Source: Candidatus Saccharimonadales bacterium | GTDB lineage: Bacteria > Patescibacteriota > Saccharimonadia > Saccharimonadales > UBA4665 | Assembly: GCA_035758825.1 (NCBI GenBank) | Contig: DASTWA010000009.1 | Coordinates: 417-64,416, forward strand | Length of the DNA: 64,000 bases | Reading direction: 5' to 3' | Shown here: positions 4,671-39,164 of the stretch, piece by piece | Layout of the letters: each line of letters starts with the position of its first letter | Position numbering within the stretch: position 1 is the first letter of the stretch | Translations under genes and position numbers: made by a program | Notes under the pieces: generated by a model | What the model was told of the DNA's origin: nothing | The model's input: the letters and a program-made list of their open reading frames with translations, nothing else | Databases searched by the model: none

Positions 4671-5003
4671 CTATTCCATGCCGGAAATTAATTGTTCGAT
4701 GCCGGCCGAGATGTGCGCCACGTCGACCGCTCCGAACATATTATATTCACTCGCCTTCAGGATGCTCTGCTCGAGCTGCCCTAGGCGCTGTTTGCCTTCC
4801 TTGGCGTGCTGCAATTGCTCCGCCCTGGTTTCGGCATACTCATAGTCGCGGGCATCAAGCCGGATATCTACGAGCTGATGTTTGAGGTTGGTGACAAGGT
4901 CCTTCTGCTGCATCGGCAGCTCACTTATGTCATAGAACGATAAGATGCTGCTGATTTGCGACTCTAATGCCTTAGCTTGGTCGTGCAGTGAATTACTTGC
5001 CAC
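4671..5003 (-). CDS. hypothetical coiled-coil-like protein
   Basis: 110-aa ORF tightly packed between rpsR and efp (gaps of 15 and 8 nt). I recognise no family. Confidence 0.5.
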   Translation of the reverse strand: MASNSLHDQAKALESQISSILSFYDISELPMQQKDLVTNLKHQLVDIRLDARDYEYAETRAEQLQHAKEGKQRLGQLEQSILKASEYNMFGAVDVAHISAGIEQLISGME

Positions 5004-5018
5004 CCTGTCCTCAAAATC

Positions 5019-5222
5019 CTAGTTGTTTGCTACGAATGGCAGCAGTGCGATGTGGCGTGCGCGCTTGATAGCGGTAGCCAAACGGCGCTGCTGGCTCTCG
5101 GTAAGACCGGTCTTCTTGCGGGTCTCGATCTGGCCGTACACGTTTACAAAGCGCTGCAAGGTCTTGAAGTCCTTGTAGTCAAAGTAAGGTACGTCTGTCT
5201 TGTGCTTAAAAATCTTAGCCAT
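5019..5222 (-). CDS. rpsR: 30S ribosomal protein S18
   Basis: 67 aa with …YKDFKTLQRFVNVYGQIETRKKTGL…RRLATAIKRARHIALLPF, typical of S18. It sits in the rpsF-ssb-rpsR order. Confidence 0.95.
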   Translation of the reverse strand: MAKIFKHKTDVPYFDYKDFKTLQRFVNVYGQIETRKKTGLTESQQRRLATAIKRARHIALLPFVANN

Positions 5223-5246
5223 TAGTTATAAATCCTTTTGCTTTGC

Positions 5247-5708
5247 TTAAAATGGAATGTCGTCGAGGTTGATCGGCTCATCGCCGATACCCTCAGATTC
5301 ATCCTTCTTCTTGTTCGAAGCGCCGCCGGAGCTGGCGCGTGGTGCTGGCGCAGAATCGCTGCCTTCACCGCCTTCGCCTCGGCCATCCAGGAAGGTTACA
5401 TCGGTAGCGAGCACTTCCACCTTGCTGCGCTTTTGACCGTCCTGCTCCCAGCTGCGGCTTTGCAAGCGGCCTTGTACTAAGACGCGGCGGCCCTTGCTAA
5501 GGTACTGGGAAACGCGTTCACCAAGAGGACCCCACGCAACTACATCGATGTAATCGGTAGCTTCCTGCCACTCACCACTCTGGTCTTTGTAAGAGCGGTT
5601 AAGAGCAAGGCTAAAGCTTGCAACGCTCTGACCGCTCGGTGTCTGACGGAGTTCTGGATCCCGGGTAAGGTTACCCAATAAGATGACTTGGTTTACACTT
5701 CGTGCCAT
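5247..5708 (-). CDS. ssb: single-stranded DNA-binding protein
   Basis: 153 aa with an OB-fold N-terminus (NQVILLGNLTRDPELRQTPSG), a Gly-rich linker and the acidic tip DDIPF. Confidence 0.95.
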   Translation of the reverse strand: MARSVNQVILLGNLTRDPELRQTPSGQSVASFSLALNRSYKDQSGEWQEATDYIDVVAWGPLGERVSQYLSKGRRVLVQGRLQSRSWEQDGQKRSKVEVLATDVTFLDGRGEGGEGSDSAPAPRASSGGASNKKKDESEGIGDEPINLDDIPF

Positions 5709-5754
5709 ATGCTGGCTCCCCTCTTCTAACTTAACCCTCTAAAATTGCTGTTAT

Positions 5755-6138
5755 CTACTCTTCGGTTTTTTCAGCAGAAGCTTCTGCTGCTTCGCCGCGC
5801 TCGGCTGCCTTCTTGGCTTTCTCGGCCTTCAGGGCTTCTGCCTTGGCGATTGCCTTCAGGTCAGGACGGGTAATCAAGAAACGGACTACTTCGTCGGTAA
5901 TGTTAAGCGTGCTTTCAATCTTGCGGACGCTCTGGGCTGGCAGCTCCAATGTGTAGAAAACGTACACAGCGTGCTCGTTCTTCTTGATTGGGTATGCAAG
6001 CTTGCGCTTACCCCAGTTGTCAGCATTGACAACCTTGCCACCGTTGTCGGTAAAGATTTTCTCTACACGGCTGGTTGCTTTTTCCAGATCGATTTCGAGA
6101 TCTGGGTGGTACAATACGGCGATTTCGTATTGGCTCAT
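5755..6138 (-). CDS. rpsF: 30S ribosomal protein S6
   Basis: The start is set at MSQYEIAVLYHPD (ATG 6138), preceded by AAGGAGG. The track start at 6165 adds 9 unlikely residues. The C-terminal tail is acidic and Lys-rich. Confidence 0.9.
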   Translation of the reverse strand: MSQYEIAVLYHPDLEIDLEKATSRVEKIFTDNGGKVVNADNWGKRKLAYPIKKNEHAVYVFYTLELPAQSVRKIESTLNITDEVVRFLITRPDLKAIAKAEALKAEKAKKAAERGEAAEASAEKTEE

Positions 6139-6286
6139 CGCTCCTCCTTTGGAATCCGCTCCCACTGGATAGCGGGCTGACGGATGCGTAAGTTTCTCAC
6201 TTCTTACGCAGGTTAATTATTAACAGAGGTAATTATACCATGCCCAAGGTGTTGTCGTCCACCCCTTAAACTGATACCATGGGTAG

Positions 6287-7246
6287 GTGAAACAAACTCC
6301 ATCTATCGTGATTTCCGGTTCGATAGCAATCGACCGGATTATGAATTTTTCGGGCCGTTATAAGGACCATATCCAGCCCGAAAAACTCGACACATTATCC
6401 ATATCAATCTTCTTGGACGCCCTGCAGGATGCGCACGGCGGCGTAGGCGCTAATATCACCTACTCCCTCGCCCTGCTCGGCGATGAACCAATATTGCTCG
6501 GCGCTGTCGGTCCTGACGGCCTGCTGTACATGGAAAAGCTGGCGCACCATGGCGTCAACATCGCCCATGTGTACGAAAGCAAGCTGCCAACTGCCACCTT
6601 CAATGTGATCACGGACGGCGACCAAAACCAGGTCGGCGGTTTCTATCCGGGTGCAATGTTCGACAGCGACGCGCTCAGTTTCGAAACATGGAAGGACGAA
6701 GCGGCTATCGTTGTTGTCTCGCCGCACGACCCCAAGGCCATGCAGCGTCAGGTACAGGAAGCCAAGCAATATGGCTTGCGCATGATGTATGACATCGGCC
6801 AACAGGTCAGCAACTTGCCTGGCGACCAAATGCGCGAAGGCGTCGAAGCCGCCAGCATCCTTATCCTTAACGACTACGAGATGACAGTGCTGAGCGAAAA
6901 GACCGGCCTGAGTATCGACGAAATCAAATCGAAGGTGCCGATTGTCATTACCACCCTTGGCAAGGACGGCTCGATCATCGAGGGCAAAGATGTGCCTGAG
7001 CCAATCAAAGTCGGTGTAGTCAAACCCGACCAAGTCCTCGACCCCACCGGCGCCGGCGACGCCTTCCGCTCCGGCTTTTTATACGGCCTGGCCCGCGAAT
7101 GGCCGCTCAAGGCCTGCGCCCAGCTTGGCGCAGTCTGCGGCACGTACGCCATCGAGAGCATGGGAACCCAGTCGCACGAATTCACACTCGACGATGTTAA
7201 ACAGCGGTACACGGCCGCTTTCGGGGAGGCGCTGCCAGAGAATTAA
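6287..7246 (+). CDS. PfkB-family carbohydrate/nucleoside kinase (possibly adenosine kinase)
   Basis: 319 aa with a GTG start, GGVGANI and the DPTGAGDAFRSGFLYG signature. It lies immediately upstream of ahcY. Confidence 0.8.
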   Translation: MKQTPSIVISGSIAIDRIMNFSGRYKDHIQPEKLDTLSISIFLDALQDAHGGVGANITYSLALLGDEPILLGAVGPDGLLYMEKLAHHGVNIAHVYESKLPTATFNVITDGDQNQVGGFYPGAMFDSDALSFETWKDEAAIVVVSPHDPKAMQRQVQEAKQYGLRMMYDIGQQVSNLPGDQMREGVEAASILILNDYEMTVLSEKTGLSIDEIKSKVPIVITTLGKDGSIIEGKDVPEPIKVGVVKPDQVLDPTGAGDAFRSGFLYGLAREWPLKACAQLGAVCGTYAIESMGTQSHEFTLDDVKQRYTAAFGEALPEN

Positions 7247-7288
7247 ACGGTGCTCCTTTAGGAATATTTTGTAAGAAAGGGATTTAGA

Positions 7289-32525: not shown

Positions 32526-35072
32526 CTAAAGTTCGCCCCAGTTTTGGCCGGTCTTAACATCTACTTTGAGCTTGACCTTGAGTTCGGGGTAAACGCTCTC
32601 CATAGTTTCTTTGAGCAGCTTGGCAGCCTGCTCGGCATTTGCTTCCGGAGTTTCTACCAAGATACTGTCGTGTACCTGTAGGATTTGTTCGCCTATGCCC
32701 TGGAGTTTTTCTTCGACCCGAAGCATGGCTATCTTCATAAGGTCAGCCTCGGTCCCCTGGATAGGCATATTAATTGCTGCGCGCTTGGCTCCTTCGCGGA
32801 CGGCAAAGTTACTGCTCTTCATATCCGGCGTCGGACGGCGGCGGCCGAAAATTGTCTCTACGTAGCCTTCACGCAGCGCTTTGGCGGCTGTTTTGTCCAT
32901 ATATTCACGGATGCGGGGCCGCAGCTCAAAATACTTGTCTATGAAGGTCTTGGCTTCGTCACGAGTCATCGTCGTGGCGATACTCAAACCATGCGGGCTC
33001 ATGCCATACAGGATGCCAAAGTTCACCACCTTGGCGTTCCGGCGCATGTCTTTGGTGACTGCTTCGAGTGGTACGCCATAAACCTCGGCGGCGGTCTTGG
33101 TGTGGATGTCGGCGTCATGGTTAAAGTCTTCGATCAGTTCTTCGTCATTAGCCATGACTGCCGCCAACCGCAGCTCAAACTGGCTGTAGTCGGCACTGAC
33201 GAACACATTACCGGGAGCAGGGACAAAGGCGGTACGGATAGCTTGGCCCAGCTCGGTGCGGGTAGGGATATTCTGCAGGTTAGGGTCATGCGAACTGAGT
33301 CGTCCGGTTGCAGCAACGTCCAGGGCAAACGTTGTGTGCAACTTGCCGTTACTGTCGACCAACTTGGGCAATGAGTCAATATATGTGCTCTTCAGTTTTG
33401 TATATTCGCGGTATTCGGTAATGAGATTGATGATTGGGTGGAGCCCGCGCAGCTTAGCGAGCTCCACAGCACCGGTAGAATACCCGGTTTTGCCCTTTTT
33501 TACGCCATCCGTGGGAAGCTGTAGTGTCTCAAACAGGATCGCCGAAAGCTGGCTTGGCGAACTAATATTGAACTCTTTGCCGGCCTTGGCATAAATATTC
33601 CGTTCCAGCGCACCAATTTTTTGCTCGAACTCCTTGCTCATGACAGCCAAATAGTCACTCTGGAGCGTGATGCCACGGTGCTCGATTTTGGCCAGAAGAT
33701 AGATGGTCGGAAATTCGATATCACGCGCTAGCTTGGTGAGCTCAGGTGCCTGCTCAAACTCCAGCGTCTGGTCTTCGAATAGCTTCCAGATAGCTGCCAC
33801 AACCTGGCCCCCGTTGTCGGTGTCGACCGTTCGGCCCAGTAGGTCAGCCAAGTCTCGTGAGCGCTCCAGGCTGTTGAGGAGGAACGCGCCAATGCGAGTA
33901 TCGTGGCCCACCTCACCCGGACATTCCAGGTCCAGCGCCAATAAAGCTCTAAAAGTGGTTTTTAGGTCGTGGCCGATGACCGGTCCGCTTGAAAGCGCCT
34001 GCACTTCTTCTGCGGATACGTCAGACATGTTAATCACCGAATATGTCGGGCTGCCGGTGCTTGCCCAGAGTTCACCGCCATCCGCGCTTAAGGCAATAAC
34101 ACGGGGGTTGGAGTTGGCAAAATCATCCGGTTTAAAGGTTGTTTGAGTGGCCGGCTGTATCTCTTCGACTGACGATTCGGCTTCGGCAAGCTCTTTGGCC
34201 GACAGCTGGGCTTCTACCTGGCGGAGCAGCGTGCGGAACTCCAGCTTACGCAGCATAGCGGCAAACTCCGGGGTAATGCCGTCCCGCAGCTTCGCCTTTT
34301 GCAGGTCTAGTTGGATCGGGGCATCGACCATCAGCGTCACCAACCGTTTGCTCAAGTAAGCCATGTCTTTGTCTTTCTCGAGCTTTGCCTTGAGGGCTGG
34401 CTTGAGTAAGTCAATATTCTCGTAGACGCCGTCCAGGGTTTTGTACTGTGAGATAAGCTCGAGGGCCGTTTTCTCACCTACGCCAGCCACACCTGGAATA
34501 TTGTCCGAGGAATCGCCCTTCAGGGCTTTGACATCCACCCATTGGTGGGCATCGACGCCGTATTTTTCTTTGAATGATGCTTCGTTAAATAGCTCGATGT
34601 TCGTCAGGCCCTTCTTGAGCGTATAGATATGGGTGTGGCTGTTGACCAACTGCAAAACGTCGAGGTCAGAGGTGACCAGATAGCTTTCGACACCCTTGGT
34701 CCCCGCCTGTTTGGCGAATGCTCCCATAAGGTCATCGGCCTCATAGTCGTCAGCTTCATACAGCGGCCAGCCCAAGGCTTCTAGTACATTGTGCAGAATA
34801 GGAATTTGTTCATAAAAATCTGGCGGCGGAGTCTTGCGGCCAGCCTTGTATTGCGGGTACAACTCAAGACGTGAACGGATATTCGTCTTGCTCTTGTCCC
34901 AGGCTACACACACGTAGTCGGGTTTCAGCCGCTTAACCACCTCAAGCGCAAGCACAGCAAACCCGTACACACCGCCCGTCGGCGTGCCATCCTTGGTACT
35001 GAGGTTCGGCATAGCGTAATAGCCGCGATAAAAAACGGATTTCCCATCGATAATCACGAGGCGTTTAGACAT
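32526..35072 (-). CDS. polA: DNA polymerase I
   Basis: The start is set at MSKRLVIIDGKSVFYRGYYA (35072). The protein has a 5'-nuclease domain, a central domain and a polymerase domain with DYSQFELRLAA and QVHDSILVE. Confidence 0.95.
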   Translation of the reverse strand: MSKRLVIIDGKSVFYRGYYAMPNLSTKDGTPTGGVYGFAVLALEVVKRLKPDYVCVAWDKSKTNIRSRLELYPQYKAGRKTPPPDFYEQIPILHNVLEALGWPLYEADDYEADDLMGAFAKQAGTKGVESYLVTSDLDVLQLVNSHTHIYTLKKGLTNIELFNEASFKEKYGVDAHQWVDVKALKGDSSDNIPGVAGVGEKTALELISQYKTLDGVYENIDLLKPALKAKLEKDKDMAYLSKRLVTLMVDAPIQLDLQKAKLRDGITPEFAAMLRKLEFRTLLRQVEAQLSAKELAEAESSVEEIQPATQTTFKPDDFANSNPRVIALSADGGELWASTGSPTYSVINMSDVSAEEVQALSSGPVIGHDLKTTFRALLALDLECPGEVGHDTRIGAFLLNSLERSRDLADLLGRTVDTDNGGQVVAAIWKLFEDQTLEFEQAPELTKLARDIEFPTIYLLAKIEHRGITLQSDYLAVMSKEFEQKIGALERNIYAKAGKEFNISSPSQLSAILFETLQLPTDGVKKGKTGYSTGAVELAKLRGLHPIINLITEYREYTKLKSTYIDSLPKLVDSNGKLHTTFALDVAATGRLSSHDPNLQNIPTRTELGQAIRTAFVPAPGNVFVSADYSQFELRLAAVMANDEELIEDFNHDADIHTKTAAEVYGVPLEAVTKDMRRNAKVVNFGILYGMSPHGLSIATTMTRDEAKTFIDKYFELRPRIREYMDKTAAKALREGYVETIFGRRRPTPDMKSSNFAVREGAKRAAINMPIQGTEADLMKIAMLRVEEKLQGIGEQILQVHDSILVETPEANAEQAAKLLKETMESVYPELKVKLKVDVKTGQNWGEL

Positions 35073-35134: not shown

Positions 35135-35163
35135 TTGACATACGAGGCAACCATTCTTATGCT
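35135..35163 (+). promoter_or_regulatory. sigma70-type promoter of the peptide/ABC operon
   Basis: TTGACA-17 nt-TATGCT, about 37 nt upstream of ATG 35200. It lies downstream of the alternative start at 35110. Confidence 0.45.
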
Positions 35164-35199
35164 GCAGCCGCAACCAACTTTAACAGGAAGGAATTCCGT

Positions 35200-35394
35200 A
35201 TGCAGAGCCTCATAGAAATTGACCAAACAGCAGACTACAGCCTCAAAGAAGCCGGACCAATCGTTATTGCCCTCGCCTTCGTAATTGCGGTTGGAGGTAT
35301 GACGGCAGCAGCGATAATCCTATGCGGTTGGCGAGGCGCCAAACATATGGGCTTCAACTGGACCCAAAAACGAGTTGAGATTGTGTGCCGCTAA
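35200..35394 (+). CDS. 64-aa peptide: acidic N-terminal segment, hydrophobic core, cationic Trp/Cys-containing C-terminus (candidate precursor peptide)
   Basis: An AGGAAGGA RBS lies 7 nt before the ATG. The sequence is MQSLIEIDQTADYSLKEAG-PIVIALAFVIAVGGMTAAAIILCGW-RGAKHMGFNWTQKRVEIVCR. Its stop overlaps the next ATG (TAATG). Confidence 0.55.
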   Translation: MQSLIEIDQTADYSLKEAGPIVIALAFVIAVGGMTAAAIILCGWRGAKHMGFNWTQKRVEIVCR

Positions 35395-36242
35395 TGAATC
35401 CGTTTGCGAGTTACTGCCCACTGTTACTCGATGCTGATATGCTGTACTTGTCTGGCTCCCTGACCATACAAGGGCGGCGTGTATACGACACTACCGTTGG
35501 CGCCCTTCACTGCATTCAACCGGCGGGCACCACTATCCTTGCGGCGCTGGGGAATGGACCAATAGCGTTCGCGGCTCTCAGACATGCCAGCAAGAATGCC
35601 GGTGTCGATGATACACAGCTCTCTGACCTTCTCGGTTTTCTCAACGTTACCGGCGGCCTGATCCGCAGGCGGCCGGTACGGGCACATGCTAACGCCTGCA
35701 AACAAACTGTCCGGAACCTGCTGCTTGGCACACGGTACAAACCGCTGTATGTCCGGCGGCGGGCGACCCCGCTTTCCATTACAAAGCATATAATTGGTGC
35801 GTCTTGGCCAATCATTACTTTAAGCATCCTCACTGCTGGCCTTGCTGCAGCCGGAGGAGTGTTGCCGGCTCATGAGTGTTTATTTATCTGCGGCGCATGG
35901 TTGTCCATATTCATCAGCTCTACCTTTCTGCATGAGCTATCCCACTATCTCCTGCTCCGCCACAACCATATACCGACCGACGTAATAAAACATGGCTTCC
36001 GATGCGGCCTGCTCCATCGGCAGCAATTACCGGACTTCGAAATAAAGACCGCCCTGCTCGGGCCAGCCGCCGGAAGTGTATGGTGCATCCTGTGTGCGGC
36101 AGTCAGTTTTGGCCTACACCAGCCGTCGGCCATTGCCATATGCGGGATCGTGCTGCTTATTCAGGCCCTTAGCCTTGTACCCTGGTACGGCGATGGTATG
36201 AGCCTGCAGGCTGCACGCCGGCAAAAGAGGTACGACCAATGA
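35394..36242 (+). CDS. fusion of PqqD/RRE-like N-terminal domain with M50-like intramembrane zinc metalloprotease
   Basis: The start is taken at ATG 35394, coupled to the upstream stop. The N-terminal ~90 aa follow a PqqD-like pattern (…ALHCIQPAGTTILAALGNGPIAFAALRHASKNAGVDDTQLSDLLGFLNVTGGLI). The TM region carries FLHELSHYLL and LVPWYGDG, which match the HExxH and LxPxxxDG motifs of site-2 proteases. Confidence 0.6.
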   Translation: MNPFASYCPLLLDADMLYLSGSLTIQGRRVYDTTVGALHCIQPAGTTILAALGNGPIAFAALRHASKNAGVDDTQLSDLLGFLNVTGGLIRRRPVRAHANACKQTVRNLLLGTRYKPLYVRRRATPLSITKHIIGASWPIITLSILTAGLAAAGGVLPAHECLFICGAWLSIFISSTFLHELSHYLLLRHNHIPTDVIKHGFRCGLLHRQQLPDFEIKTALLGPAAGSVWCILCAAVSFGLHQPSAIAICGIVLLIQALSLVPWYGDGMSLQAARRQKRYDQ

Positions 36243-36973
36243 ACGGCTTAGTCCAAATACATAAACTGCGGGTACACCGCGGGGTCAACTTTTCTTTAAG
36301 CATTGACTGTCTTTCGCTGACTGCAGGAAAAACCATCTGTTTGGCCGGGCCTAACGGGAGCGGCAAGTCGACACTTATCCAATCCATCGCTGGCTTGATC
36401 ACACCCGACCAAGGTACGATTACGGTTGCGGGACAGGCAGTCAGCAGCAACCTCCGCGCCACCAGGGCAGCGATAGGCCTCATACCGGACGACGAAGATT
36501 GGCTCATCAAAGAATTGTGCGCAAAGGAATACTTTGCACTATTGGCCCGAGTTTACCGCGATGCGGGCGTCCGGACAGATATGGAGGCGCAGGCCCTCTC
36601 CCTATCGAGGGAGCTTATGTTCAACTCCTTTTTGCAGCCGCTCGACTCATTGAGCCACGGCAACAAAAAGAAGGTCCAAATCATTGCTGGCCTCATGCAC
36701 CATCCAGCATTGCTGGTGCTGGACGAAGTACGCAACGGCCTTGATCCACTGGCTATCATCGCAGTTGAATCACTCCTCAAGAGAGAAAAAAGCCGTGGGG
36801 CATGCATTCTGGCCGCCACCCATGACCTGTGGTGGGCGCAACGGACAGGCGATCGCATTATTCTCTTATCCCAAGGCAAAGTACAAGCCGACAAATCAAC
36901 AAGTTCAATCAAACGCACCCATAAAAGCGTCGAGGCAATGTTTATGGAGCTGAATGGACTGCAGACCGGATGA
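36239..36973 (+). CDS. ABC transporter ATP-binding protein
   Basis: 244 aa with Walker A GPNGSGKST, signature LSHGNKKKV, Walker B LLVLDE and an H-loop ATHD. It has ATGA overlaps at both ends. Confidence 0.9.
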   Translation: MNGLVQIHKLRVHRGVNFSLSIDCLSLTAGKTICLAGPNGSGKSTLIQSIAGLITPDQGTITVAGQAVSSNLRATRAAIGLIPDDEDWLIKELCAKEYFALLARVYRDAGVRTDMEAQALSLSRELMFNSFLQPLDSLSHGNKKKVQIIAGLMHHPALLVLDEVRNGLDPLAIIAVESLLKREKSRGACILAATHDLWWAQRTGDRIILLSQGKVQADKSTSSIKRTHKSVEAMFMELNGLQTG

Positions 36974-38247
36974 ATATCTACGGCGCCGTACTTGCATCCA
37001 CATTCGGTCACGGCAGAAGGCCATTGCGTTCAGCTGTGACCAAGCTTACGGTCATGGGCGTAGCCACGGCCGCCCTCGGCCTTGCACTCGCTGCCGGCAT
37101 TCCGCCGCTCGCCGCAGAAGCCTCAACATCCACTCATTGGTTCATCCGCTCGATCTTTGTCATGCAGGTGGTCACAGTCGCGTCCAACATGAGTGCAGCA
37201 GGGATTATTGGCAGCAAAGACCAGCTTGACCGGCTGCTGTTAACGCTCCCTCTATCCTCAAGACAGCAGTCCGTATTGCTATTACTCCCCACCCTTGTCA
37301 TTACCATGTATGGTCTCTTGCTTGTGCTGCCGTGTCTGTACGCGGTAGGCACAAGGATAGGGGCGCCGATACCCGTTCTCTTCTTAGGCGTATCCGTGGG
37401 TAGCCTGTCGGGTATCGGCCTTTTGCATGGGCAGCTCAGAAGCCCTTGGAAAATCCTAAGCATCCCTATAGTTATGTTTGCAGAGTACGGACTCTTGGTC
37501 TCGCTAACGAAGGATTCGTCATCGAATCCAGCCGCACTGCTTTCTCTTTGCCTGGTCGTCGCCCTTTTATGCTTGGCGGCACTGGGTACAGCCAGCCGTA
37601 TCCGGGCCGAACTGACTGACGCGGCAAGATCAAAACAGCTACGCTTCGTTCAGCATACAGGGTGCCTCTGGGCGATCAAAAAAATCTGGCGGTTTCGAAC
37701 CATGAGGGTCGGCTTTGGGGCAGCGCTGGCCTTGTCGGCGATCATAGCTTTTCTTGCCAAAAAATACCATCTGGACGCTGATCCTTCCCTGGCGACCCTA
37801 GGCCAGTTATTGGCCGCCTCCTACACCTCGGATGCCCGCACGGCAGCCAGAAAGCAAACGCCTTTTGAGGTGGCGGGCCTTAAAGGTAGCTTTGCCCTTG
37901 TAACAAGACTACTCCTTCCGGCTCTGCTAGGGGCGCTCCTGTCCACCGCGCCGCTCACAGTCTTACTGTCCAGCACATCGCCGGCGCACGCGCCAATAAT
38001 TCTGTTACAGATTACTTCGGGAGCATGTCTCGGATTTATGTGCGGATTCTTGCTTGCTCCCGAACGAAGGGATGTCAGTGCCCAAATTGCCGCAGCGCTC
38101 ATGTGCGTCGCTTTGGCCATCCTGCCACAACGACTGACGATACTTAGCGGGCAGCACCCGGCCATCTTTTTCGGCGCTCTGGCGATAATCGGGTCTGTCG
38201 TCGCGATTATCGCCGAAAGAAAGCGTAATACATTTATATGGAGGTAA
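36970..38247 (+). CDS. polytopic membrane protein, probable ABC permease partner
   Basis: 425 aa with roughly 10-12 hydrophobic helices. It is translationally coupled to the ATPase gene. Confidence 0.65.
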   Translation: MNIYGAVLASTFGHGRRPLRSAVTKLTVMGVATAALGLALAAGIPPLAAEASTSTHWFIRSIFVMQVVTVASNMSAAGIIGSKDQLDRLLLTLPLSSRQQSVLLLLPTLVITMYGLLLVLPCLYAVGTRIGAPIPVLFLGVSVGSLSGIGLLHGQLRSPWKILSIPIVMFAEYGLLVSLTKDSSSNPAALLSLCLVVALLCLAALGTASRIRAELTDAARSKQLRFVQHTGCLWAIKKIWRFRTMRVGFGAALALSAIIAFLAKKYHLDADPSLATLGQLLAASYTSDARTAARKQTPFEVAGLKGSFALVTRLLLPALLGALLSTAPLTVLLSSTSPAHAPIILLQITSGACLGFMCGFLLAPERRDVSAQIAAALMCVALAILPQRLTILSGQHPAIFFGALAIIGSVVAIIAERKRNTFIWR

Positions 38248-38248
38248 T

Positions 38249-38584
38249 ATGTTTCACTTCAACCTACAAAAAATAGTCCGGGCAGCTGGACTGGGGCTCT
38301 TTGTCGGTCTGGTCTTCTGGTTTGGTGCCTTATGTTTTGCGGCTAATTCCGTGAACAGGTCGTCCAAAGACGTGACCTACCGGTTGCGCGCCGGGCCACT
38401 ACTCCTTAACACCATCCAACGGAAAACGACTGACAAGGGCACAGAAGCCAGCATCAGCGTTCACTGGGGGCTGGCAAGCTTCGTTGGATGTACTGCAGCA
38501 GTAACTTCGGCAATAGTCACTGTAAGCCAAAAATTTGGCATTACTCGGTATAAATCGGCGGGTCGCCCTGTTCGGGAGTCGTAA
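38249..38584 (+). CDS. small 2-TM membrane protein (candidate immunity/accessory protein)
   Basis: 111 aa, starting 1 nt after the permease stop. TM segments are AAGLGLFVGLVFWFGALCFAA and WGLASFVGCTAAVTSAIVTV. Confidence 0.5.
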   Translation: MFHFNLQKIVRAAGLGLFVGLVFWFGALCFAANSVNRSSKDVTYRLRAGPLLLNTIQRKTTDKGTEASISVHWGLASFVGCTAAVTSAIVTVSQKFGITRYKSAGRPVRES

Positions 38585-39164
38585 AGTGGACGCCGCTGTC
38601 ATCGACATAAAAAGATCCGCACGTATCTTGCTCCTGGCCCGTGTCGGCATAGACACCGATCGGCTTGCCTTCTACGGCGCTCGGGATACTTACTACCGTA
38701 CCGCTTAAGCCATTGCCGCCAGTAACGGGAAGGTCGTTACCGACAGATCCCTGCTGGTTGTATTCACGAACATGGTAGGTTACGTTATTGGCGCCGGTAG
38801 TGACTACACGCAAATTTAGGGTAGTGTTGCCTTGGGCATCTTCTTTGGCGTTTTCCAACGCGTCAAGCCTACACTCCAACGCAAGCCGTTCAGAAGATGC
38901 CGGTGCGGCTGGAGCGGAGCTAGAAGCATCGCCGCTTGCAGTCTCGAAAGCACGGGATTGATCAGGGGCTTCACCACCACCGCCAAAAAGGGATCGCACG
39001 CCCATTACACCAGCCAGGCCAAGGGCAACGCCCCCAATAAGGGTACGGGTGCGCCATTTTCTAAACTGTGTCGATAGCTTGCGTTCGCCTTTGGTGTCGT
39101 CCGCATAAGCTTGCAAGGCCTCAATAGCCGATGTTTCTGATCGTGCCGCTGCATGGTTTGCCAT
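38541..39164 (-). CDS. N-terminally membrane-anchored hypothetical protein
   Basis: 207 aa with a TM segment (LIGGVALGLAGVMGV), a Ser/Ala-rich linker and a beta-rich domain. It overlaps the convergent 38249-38584 ORF by 44 nt. Confidence 0.5.
   Translation of the reverse strand: MANHAAARSETSAIEALQAYADDTKGERKLSTQFRKWRTRTLIGGVALGLAGVMGVRSLFGGGGEAPDQSRAFETASGDASSSAPAAPASSERLALECRLDALENAKEDAQGNTTLNLRVVTTGANNVTYHVREYNQQGSVGNDLPVTGGNGLSGTVVSIPSAVEGKPIGVYADTGQEQDTCGSFYVDDSGVHFTTPEQGDPPIYTE

Follow-up and report, generated by a model that had tools for sequence, protein, structure and literature searches.

A five-gene operon of soil Saccharibacteria that pairs a conserved small peptide with a predicted RRE-like domain/site-2 protease fusion and a putative ABC transporter

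The window analysed here, a stretch of 64,000 nucleotides from a Candidatus Saccharimonadales bacterium (GenBank assembly GCA_035758825.1, contig DASTWA010000009.1, positions 417 to 64,416), carries on its plus strand a five-gene operon, g1 to g5, which is a stripped-down relative of peptide-toxin maturation systems and belongs to the core genome of soil Saccharibacteria rather than to a mobile island. The first gene, g1 (35200-35394), encodes a 64-residue precursor-like peptide with a single transmembrane (TM) segment by hydropathy. It is followed by g2 (36242 being its last position and 35394 its first), whose 282-residue product, to judge from its open reading frame (ORF), its family and a structural model, appears to be a fusion of a RiPP (a peptide made on the ribosome and modified after translation) recognition element (RRE)-like domain with a site-2 (M50) protease (S2P), with four TM segments by hydropathy. 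The remaining genes encode a 244-residue ATP-binding cassette (ABC) ATPase of the DrrA/ABC-2 type, recognised by both Pfam and NCBIfam (g3, 36239-36973), a 425-residue polytopic membrane protein with about 11 TM segments by hydropathy (g4, 36970-38247) and a 111-residue protein with two hydropathy-predicted TM segments (g5, 38249-38584). The g1/g2 junction reads TAATG (35392-35396), the g2/g3 and g3/g4 junctions both read ATGA (36239-36242 and 36970-36973), and g4 and g5 are separated by a 1-nt gap (38247/38249). For g2 two starts are available in the window, GTG at 35385 and ATG at 35394, both of which lie inside the end of g1. Upstream, polA lies on the minus strand and ends at 35072; downstream, the final 44 nt of g5 are shared with a 207-aa ORF on the minus strand (38541-39164). 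A preliminary description of this DNA, made from the letters alone, had listed five plus-strand ORFs between two minus-strand genes, and the ORFs, their sizes, every junction and the orientation of both flanks proved to be as it had given them. The identical stretch is present in two further sequencing runs, in which the 64-aa gene was called as well, and a scan of both strands of the whole 64-kb window against Rfam returned no family at gathering score.

The sigma-70-type promoter that had been described ahead of g1, TTGACA-17-TATGCT (35135-35163), was also found by a promoter scan, and a Shine-Dalgarno sequence, AGGAAGGA (35185-35192, read from the sequence), stands between it and the g1 start codon. 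The promoter recurs in place elsewhere. Of 20 distinct homologous loci, 15 have a TTGACA-17/18-TAnnCT pair whose first base lies 59-67 nt ahead of the peptide ATG, and AAGGA or GGAG precedes that ATG in nearly all related loci. Given this recurrence, the operon promoter is more than a coincidence.

Word-index homology searches with g2, with g4 and with the g2 family alignment recovered essentially only the query itself, and the g2 family became visible only because an exhaustive HMMER search was made. At E<=1e-3 it returned 224 cluster representatives, of which 186 were below 1e-10; almost all were about 280 aa long and aligned end to end. A phmmer search of PDB sequences with g2 alone gave nothing meaningful, a tblastn search of plasmids with g2 gave no match, and the family matches of g2 alone were marginal (DUF3267, 0.064; Peptidase_M50, 0.4). 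The Pfam Peptidase_M50 model scored 10.4 bits with g2 alone against a cut-off of 27.2, but was matched by 14 of 74 family members and reached 24.3 bits (2.3e-5) with the family consensus. One distant M50 match, P0156, lies on short uninformative contigs. In the 74-sequence alignment the predicted zinc-binding and catalytic residues of the HELSH motif (H180, E181 and H184; 35931-35945) are invariant, and in the structural model they lie within a TM helix (159-190). Also invariant are P263 and D267, the latter being the putative third zinc ligand, in the motif PWYGDG (P263-G268; 36180-36197), where Y265 and G268 are found in at least 90% of members (family motif LLPxYGDG, SLVPWYGDG in the window). 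SLVPWYGDG fits the (N/S)xxPxxxxDG type of zinc-ligand motif and aligns with PxxPxDG of the M. jannaschii S2P (MjS2P, 3b4r), which the family profile matched with E=4e-9 over residues 139-279, spanning both motifs; HELSH falls on the HExxH of MjS2P in this match.

The AlphaFold2 model of g2, built from the family alignment (mean predicted local distance difference test score, pLDDT, 97.3; predicted template modelling score, pTM, 0.91), places a winged-helix domain of RRE (PqqD-like) topology at residues 1-93 (35394-35672), with strands at 16-19, 23-26, 29-32 and 37-40, helices at 43-53, 59-68 and 73-85 and a last strand at 89-92, all with pLDDT >95. A basic linker and a small four-helix membrane core follow, with a beta-hairpin after the HExxH helix. 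Within the N-terminal domain D15, D32, H39 and an LLGFLNxIGGL motif are conserved across the 74 members. When the model was compared with the PDB using Foldseek, SpoIVFB, NisB, MjS2P and MibB were among the five best matches (probability 0.98-1.00, E 0.03-0.08). The S2P matches, SpoIVFB (8vjl, 1.00) and MjS2P (3b4r, 0.99), were in the top three with E of about 0.03-0.06; on the RRE side, NisB (6m7y, 0.98-0.99) aligned over 89 columns with an rmsd of 3.0, and MibB (5ehk, 0.99) over 95 columns. NisB and MibB are lanthipeptide dehydratases in which an RRE serves as the leader-binding domain, and from the aligned length it is probably this domain of each that aligns with g2. The curated protein models matched by the largest number of family members were NF041824 (daptide) and then NF058609 (YydH/LiaK epipeptide), all below their cut-offs; NF041824 was reached weakly, by 5 of the 74 sequences (best 1.4e-3), the window g2 not being among its matches at E<=1. 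The window protein matched neither model, and the family consensus searched against NCBIfam did not return the daptide model. We conclude, as judged from motifs, profile match and model together, that the C-terminal half of g2 is a genuine M50 site-2 protease with its catalytic motifs intact, and, from predicted fold and architecture rather than from sequence, that the N-terminal domain has an RRE-type winged-helix fold. The proposal of the preliminary description, an RRE-like/M50-like membrane protease, is thus borne out by fold, motifs and the MjS2P match, including the RRE-type topology of the N-terminal domain about which it had asked. Of the three profile matches it had suggested looking for, ABC_tran (PF00005) was found in g3, Peptidase_M50 was found for the g2 family only, the window protein scoring below the cut-off, and PqqD was not significant.

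The g1 peptide has three parts. Residues 1-20 form an acidic N-region with a charge of about -3.5, residues 21-44 are a hydrophobic stretch, and residues 45-64 make up a basic tail of charge about +3.8, which ends in VEIVCR, that is, in Cys-Arg. Residues 21-64 together, hydrophobic and then basic, have a computed mass of 4.77 kDa, against 6.96 kDa for the whole peptide, and a charge of about +3.8. Y13, E17, C42, G43, C63 and R64 are invariant or nearly so among related peptides, with K16, ALA at 24-26 and G32 as further conserved positions, and all 23 distinct peptides have a Cys-Arg C-terminus, in one case Cys-Arg-Arg. Mean pairwise identity is lowest in residues 1-12 (0.39) and highest in the hydrophobic stretch (0.72). 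Most members carry KE(A/F/V)GP at the junction of the N-region with the hydrophobic stretch; a divergent subfamily lacks the proline and has KEAAV, KEVAV or KEGVV instead. Helix-breaking GP (19-20, in most members) and G32-G/S33 lie in or beside the hydrophobic segment, and S2P substrates typically require residues of this kind. The median proportion of differing sites in g1 is 0.78 for synonymous (pS) and 0.21 for non-synonymous (pN) positions, and the ratio of the corresponding rates (dN/dS) is about 0.1 where measurable. Because synonymous sites are saturated while the amino acids are kept, g1 is a translated gene under strong purifying selection; the same observation rules out a conserved non-coding element. 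Two other identities were rejected: a type IV prepilin, as there is no G|FxxxE motif, and a C-terminal sorting signal of the sortase/exosortase type, as only 20 residues precede the helix and there is no cargo domain.

Related loci were collected by a g2-seeded scan of species-representative genomes (six loci), by look-ups of individual g2 family members, including the most distant one listed, and by a peptide-seeded scan of metagenome contigs (18 loci). In each of the 27 related loci that are readable at this point, the window not being counted, g2 is immediately preceded by a g1-family ORF of 64-67 residues; one further contig, which ends inside the peptide gene, is not among the 27. Co-conservation, left as a check in the preliminary description, therefore extends to every readable related locus, and there is one precursor gene per locus. 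On every contig of sufficient length g2 is followed by the ATPase gene, by a gene for a polytopic protein (423-472 aa) and by one for a two-TM protein (about 100-120 aa), except that no clear g5 ORF was seen in L016. Identity of the peptide to that of the window is 47-83% in the peptide-seeded loci and 39% in L008, compared with 25-39% for the protease, 40-57% for the ATPase, 22-34% for the permease, 30-41% for g5 and 70-83% for polA; by this measure the conservation of g1 is comparable to that of polA.

Some individual loci differ in detail. In many loci (L004-L007 and L012-L017) the best g2 start is a GTG within the last codons of the peptide gene. In L033 a sigma-70-like gene (5661-7016, minus strand) is inserted between polA and the operon, and its called start covers the peptide gene. 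The peptide ORF (6877-7071, plus strand) is present there, although the gene caller omitted it because the long opposite-strand call covers it, and this locus shows that a small gene of the g1 type can vanish from annotations. In L008, the most divergent of the genome loci, a gene for a Peptidase_M14 zinc carboxypeptidase (4732-5538, plus strand; 3.2e-24) lies just upstream on the same strand, and the peptide (5798-6001, plus strand) is the only one that ends in Cys-Arg-Arg, which hints, as a single case, at C-terminal trimming of basic residues at that locus.

The ATPase named in the preliminary description was recognised as DrrA-type, g3 matching Pfam ABC_tran (1.2e-23) and NCBIfam drrA (1.5e-35). 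Walker A, Walker B and the H-loop are conserved as GPNGSGKS, DE and the H of ATHD, respectively, the Walker B region reading DE(L/V)RNGLDP and being followed by ATHDLWWAER. Besides this Walker B region, the family-invariant atypical motifs are LSHGNKKKVQ in place of the LSGGQ signature and IPDDE at the position expected for the Q-loop glutamine, and on these motifs g3 represents a distinct ATPase subfamily specific to the operon. Every locus that extends far enough has a conserved g4 protein; g4 and 12 homologues gave no Pfam, NCBIfam or PDB match, with a family profile included in the search, and a single-sequence AlphaFold model (pLDDT 44) was unusable. From its position, coupling and topology it is presumed to be the permease of the ABC transporter. 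The same three features make g5 a candidate accessory or immunity protein; it had no match in Pfam, NCBIfam or PDB sequences, and in 12 aligned loci it keeps its position and a conserved loop between the two helices (GPLxL...G..AS).

In most loci polA lies upstream of the operon and a P-type ATPase gene downstream, whereas in a minority (L008, L009, L029 and L036) the operon is not beside polA and the five genes are nevertheless kept together. No tailoring enzyme, mobile-element gene or regulator was common to the neighbourhoods of the loci inspected. The G+C content (GC) of the operon is 0.545, compared with 0.534 +/- 0.014 in windows of equal size, 24% of which are as high or higher, and its third-position GC (GC3) is not above that of polA. 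Because the operon keeps its position beside polA and its GC is ordinary, we regard it as inherited vertically: it is an old part of the core genome of a Saccharimonadales clade. The preliminary description had seen a GC-rich block and a hint of horizontal acquisition; the first does not stand against these values, and ordinary GC together with polA/P-type ATPase synteny across genomes whose polA is only 70-83% identical speaks against a horizontally acquired island.

Several neighbouring genes were recorded in passing. The 207-aa ORF (38541-39164, minus strand) is convergent with the operon, encodes one N-terminal hydrophobic segment and had no family match; a 31%-identical homologue lies at the same place in L006, and the ORF is absent in L007 and L010. 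Stand-alone response-regulator receiver genes lie near the operon copies away from polA in L008 (9826-10317, minus strand) and L009 (4466-5291, minus strand), with a GAF protein gene near the L008 operon and a HisKA kinase gene in L036 (1709-3388, minus strand); no two-component genes lie near the window's copy. In L009 only, two adjacent LPG_synthase_C genes (5381-7257, plus strand) are found about 1.5 kb downstream of the operon. This domain is the C-terminus of MprF-type aminoacyl-phosphatidylglycerol synthases, which are associated with resistance to cationic peptides. Two operon-bearing relatives are on single contigs of 1,702,121 bp (L010) and 1,460,142 bp (L021). The usual size of Saccharibacteria genomes is about 1 Mb, so these contigs are large, and they come either from soil genomes of unusual size or from chimeric assemblies.

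Taken together, we lean, if only somewhat, towards a minimal, tailoring-free module in which the RRE-like domain binds the leader of g1, the protease cuts near KEAGP|I and the resulting peptide, about 44 residues long, is exported by the ABC transporter. On this reading g1 would be translated as a 64-residue precursor from the operon's own promoter, and its acidic N-region, roughly residues 1-20 with the conserved Y13-x-x-K-E, would be captured by the cytoplasmic RRE-like domain of g2. Capture would bring the junction with the hydrophobic segment into the zinc site of the four-helix protease, near the cytoplasmic membrane face, and the cut would fall at or near KEAGP|I, by analogy with the removal of daptide leaders after the proline of ELExMEAP. 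The released core, about 44 residues and about 4.77 kDa, would be hydrophobic with a net charge of about +4, its invariant C42 and C63 could form an extracellular disulfide, and g3 and g4, perhaps with g5, might extrude the product from the membrane or shield the producer. A number of points weigh against this proposal. Beyond the gene models the scheme is inferred throughout, from capture of the peptide by g2 to its cleavage site, disulfide, export and biological target, and the processed product is a predicted one. The RRE assignment rests on fold and architecture, the PqqD sequence matches being marginal and not significant (TIGR04353, E=0.11 with the window g2; TIGR04248, 0.012 with one family member), and the consensus of the N-terminal domain gave no PqqD match in Pfam or NCBIfam; the presumed permease is likewise without a family match. 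Under the positive-inside rule, an acidic N-terminus and a basic C-terminus would put the N-region outside, unless it is captured before insertion. Furthermore, the divergent subfamily lacks the proline of KEAGP, the proposed leader (1-12) is the least conserved part of the peptide and the core the most, which is the reverse of daptide precursors, and the overlap of g1 with g2 offers no obvious route to an excess of peptide.

Some of the same observations suit a peptide that is never released. Thus g1 could be a stable single-pass subunit or regulator of a complex with g2, g3, g4 and g5, gating the protease or the transporter, which would act on another substrate. In conservation g1 matches polA, whereas its partners diverge fast, it is single-copy, its stop overlaps the g2 start in a way that suggests matched rather than excess output, and its acidic N-terminus and basic C-terminus would suit a stably inserted N-out/C-in helix; synteny in the core genome and the lack of tailoring enzymes are also in keeping with such a role. 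What makes us consider it unlikely, if worth serious attention, is that the RRE domains characterised so far bind an adjacently encoded precursor (10.1101/2023.03.08.531785), that both of the nearest curated protease families are peptide-maturation enzymes, and that conserved glycines and a proline in or beside the hydrophobic segment are as expected of an S2P substrate. The charge distribution of g1, which obeys the positive-inside rule, could also be read as regulated intramembrane proteolysis of reversed polarity: the RRE-like domain would bind the cytoplasmic tail (45-64), the protease would cut near C42-G43, one fragment would signal inward and the ABC transporter would clear the hydrophobic remnant, a task that has reportedly been proposed for EcsAB with RasP. 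The structures of MjS2P and SpoIVFB place the S2P active site close to the cytoplasmic side of the membrane, which would suit a cut there, and it is C42-G43 and the terminal Cys-Arg that are invariant while the N-terminal 12 residues vary. Some RiPP systems, such as bottromycin, do use follower instead of leader peptides (PMC10885120). However, DapP, the only RRE-S2P fusion yet characterised, works with a leader at the N-terminus and cuts where leader and core meet, the 20-residue tail has no recognisable effector domain and no partner regulator is conserved beside the operon, so that we consider this arrangement quite improbable.

The least likely version, and one to which we give very little credence, is a classical strain-competition bacteriocin locus, horizontally acquired and with g5 as a dedicated immunity protein. 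The gene order (precursor, protease, ABC transporter, small membrane protein) and a cationic hydrophobic core like that of class II bacteriocins would agree with it, as would the autoimmunity conferred by ABC transporters of the EpeAB type (PMC12871923). Against it stand the ordinary GC and GC3, a chromosomal position conserved across divergent genomes, where uniform syntenic presence argues against transfer, the single precursor per locus under strong purifying selection, the lack of flanking mobile-element genes, and the failure to link g5 to any immunity family in Pfam or NCBIfam. Typical bacteriocins are strain-variable. We think a lineage-wide role likelier for g1 than that of a strain-specific bacteriocin, because g1 is a single-copy gene fixed in the core genome and matches polA in conservation. 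A role in signalling, in host interaction or in structure would be compatible with this, and for the processed peptide that we favour the candidate roles are a membrane-active effector directed at the host or at competitors, or else a signalling peptide. A bolder extension of that proposal, speculative and in our judgement distinctly unlikely, is that an untailored cationic peptide is a lineage-defining epibiotic effector, processed under RRE guidance, exported and acting on the host envelope or as a population signal. If true, action on the envelope might be, for example, permeabilisation for nutrient uptake, or attachment; the effector role would explain the polA-like conservation and core-genome fixation of g1, and this would be an RRE-dependent protease without any tailoring chemistry, so that RRE-S2P fusions would exist outside RiPP modification pathways.

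Saccharibacteria are obligate epibionts with tiny genomes, and to our knowledge the majority of the small membrane proteins that they conserve lack an assigned role. The operon is a compact five-gene module whose parts point to one specific peptide being processed in a regulated manner and exported; if exported, g1 would be a candidate mediator of the interaction of an episymbiont with its host or with competitors, and its conservation across the whole soil clade gives a handle on biology that is otherwise hard to reach.

The likeness to peptide-toxin loci that the preliminary description had drawn holds, and its best parallels, which were not named there, are DapA/DapP/DapT and epeXEPAB. Daptide clusters comprise a precursor (DapA), an RRE-S2P fusion (DapP, also MpaP) and ABC transporters (DapT), the RRE being fused N-terminally to the S2P, which removes the leader after a conserved proline and is encoded beside multi-component ABC transporters (10.1101/2023.03.08.531785; PMC10036551). 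The operon shares with them a short precursor with an acidic N-region followed by an aliphatic, membrane-seeking core, and adjacent ABC transporter genes, and g2 resembles DapP in its predicted domain architecture, NF041824 being reached weakly and by a few family members; where daptides are cut after the proline of ELExMEAP, most g1 members have KE(A/F/V)GP at the equivalent junction. However, neither the operon nor the 10 kb around it encodes DapB (DUF-RRE), the dehydrogenase DapC, the aminotransferase DapD or the methyltransferase DapM. The window does hold one methyltransferase gene, beyond polA, which is absent from that position in the syntenic locus L010. Daptides end in a class-defining Thr that is converted to an amine, whereas g1 ends in Cys-Arg, and there is one precursor per locus instead of about 2-10. 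Daptide precursors have a conserved motif in the leader and cores that share only the C-terminal Thr (10.1101/2023.03.08.531785), whereas the g1 core is highly conserved; daptide clusters also show little conservation of gene order, whereas here order and chromosomal position are fixed. Finally, the host phylum differs, the reported clusters being from Actinomycetota, Bacillota and one Pseudomonadota genome (10.1101/2023.03.08.531785) and the present operon from Saccharibacteria.

The second parallel is the epeXEPAB (yydFGHIJ) locus of B. subtilis, in which maturation and handling of the epipeptide EPE fall to the M50 protease EpeP and the ABC transporter EpeAB (PMC10885120; PMC12871923). Both loci have the order peptide, membrane M50 protease, ABC ATPase, ABC permease, and in epeXEPAB the protease matures a small membrane-active peptide while the ABC transporter handles the product or protects the cell. 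Unlike epeXEPAB, the present operon and its flanks lack a radical-SAM epimerase (EpeE), a fifth gene, g5, is present, and g1 is unrelated in sequence to EPE and much longer than its 17 residues; an RRE fusion of EpeP is not described in either paper (PMC10885120; PMC12871923), whereas g2 has an RRE-like domain. Because the tailoring enzymes are absent and the peptide ends in Cys-Arg, not Thr, the operon is neither a daptide nor an epipeptide locus. Other classes were considered and rejected. A double-glycine/C39 class II bacteriocin is ruled out, since g3 is a stand-alone 244-aa ATPase without a C39 domain and g1 lacks LSxxELxxIxGG, and lasso peptide, sactipeptide, lanthipeptide and circular-bacteriocin loci are ruled out, as the operon contains none of their defining enzymes; the radical-SAM, cyclodehydratase (YcaO), lanthionine and C39 peptidase genes that had been reported missing are indeed not in the operon.

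M50 proteases also take part in peptide maturation elsewhere, as with TglG/TmoG of the pearlins (PMC10885120; PMC12871923), and in streptococci the S2P Eep and the ABC exporter PptAB produce peptide pheromones (PMC13361665). The Eep/PptAB systems of streptococci and enterococci resemble the operon in pairing an intramembrane M50 protease with an ABC exporter for short hydrophobic peptide signals, but there the genes are unlinked housekeeping genes that serve many precursors and no RRE domain is involved, whereas here the pairing is operon-linked, with no cognate Rgg-type receptor or Opp importer linked to it. With the canonical S2Ps (MjS2P, SpoIVFB and RseP) g2 shares an HExxH in a TM helix, an Asp ligand in a later motif, a beta-hairpin (in the model) beside the active-site helix, and fold and profile matches; unlike them it would have a minimal four-helix core and, instead of PDZ or CBS domains, a winged-helix domain of a peptide-binding type. 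The kind of architecture is therefore known, and what is new here is a tailoring-free, core-genome RRE-S2P peptide module with a highly conserved precursor family. It would extend the RRE-S2P pairing, so far tied to daptide tailoring, to a tailoring-free system of the candidate phyla radiation, and would add to that pairing a precursor family with an invariant C-terminal Cys-Arg.

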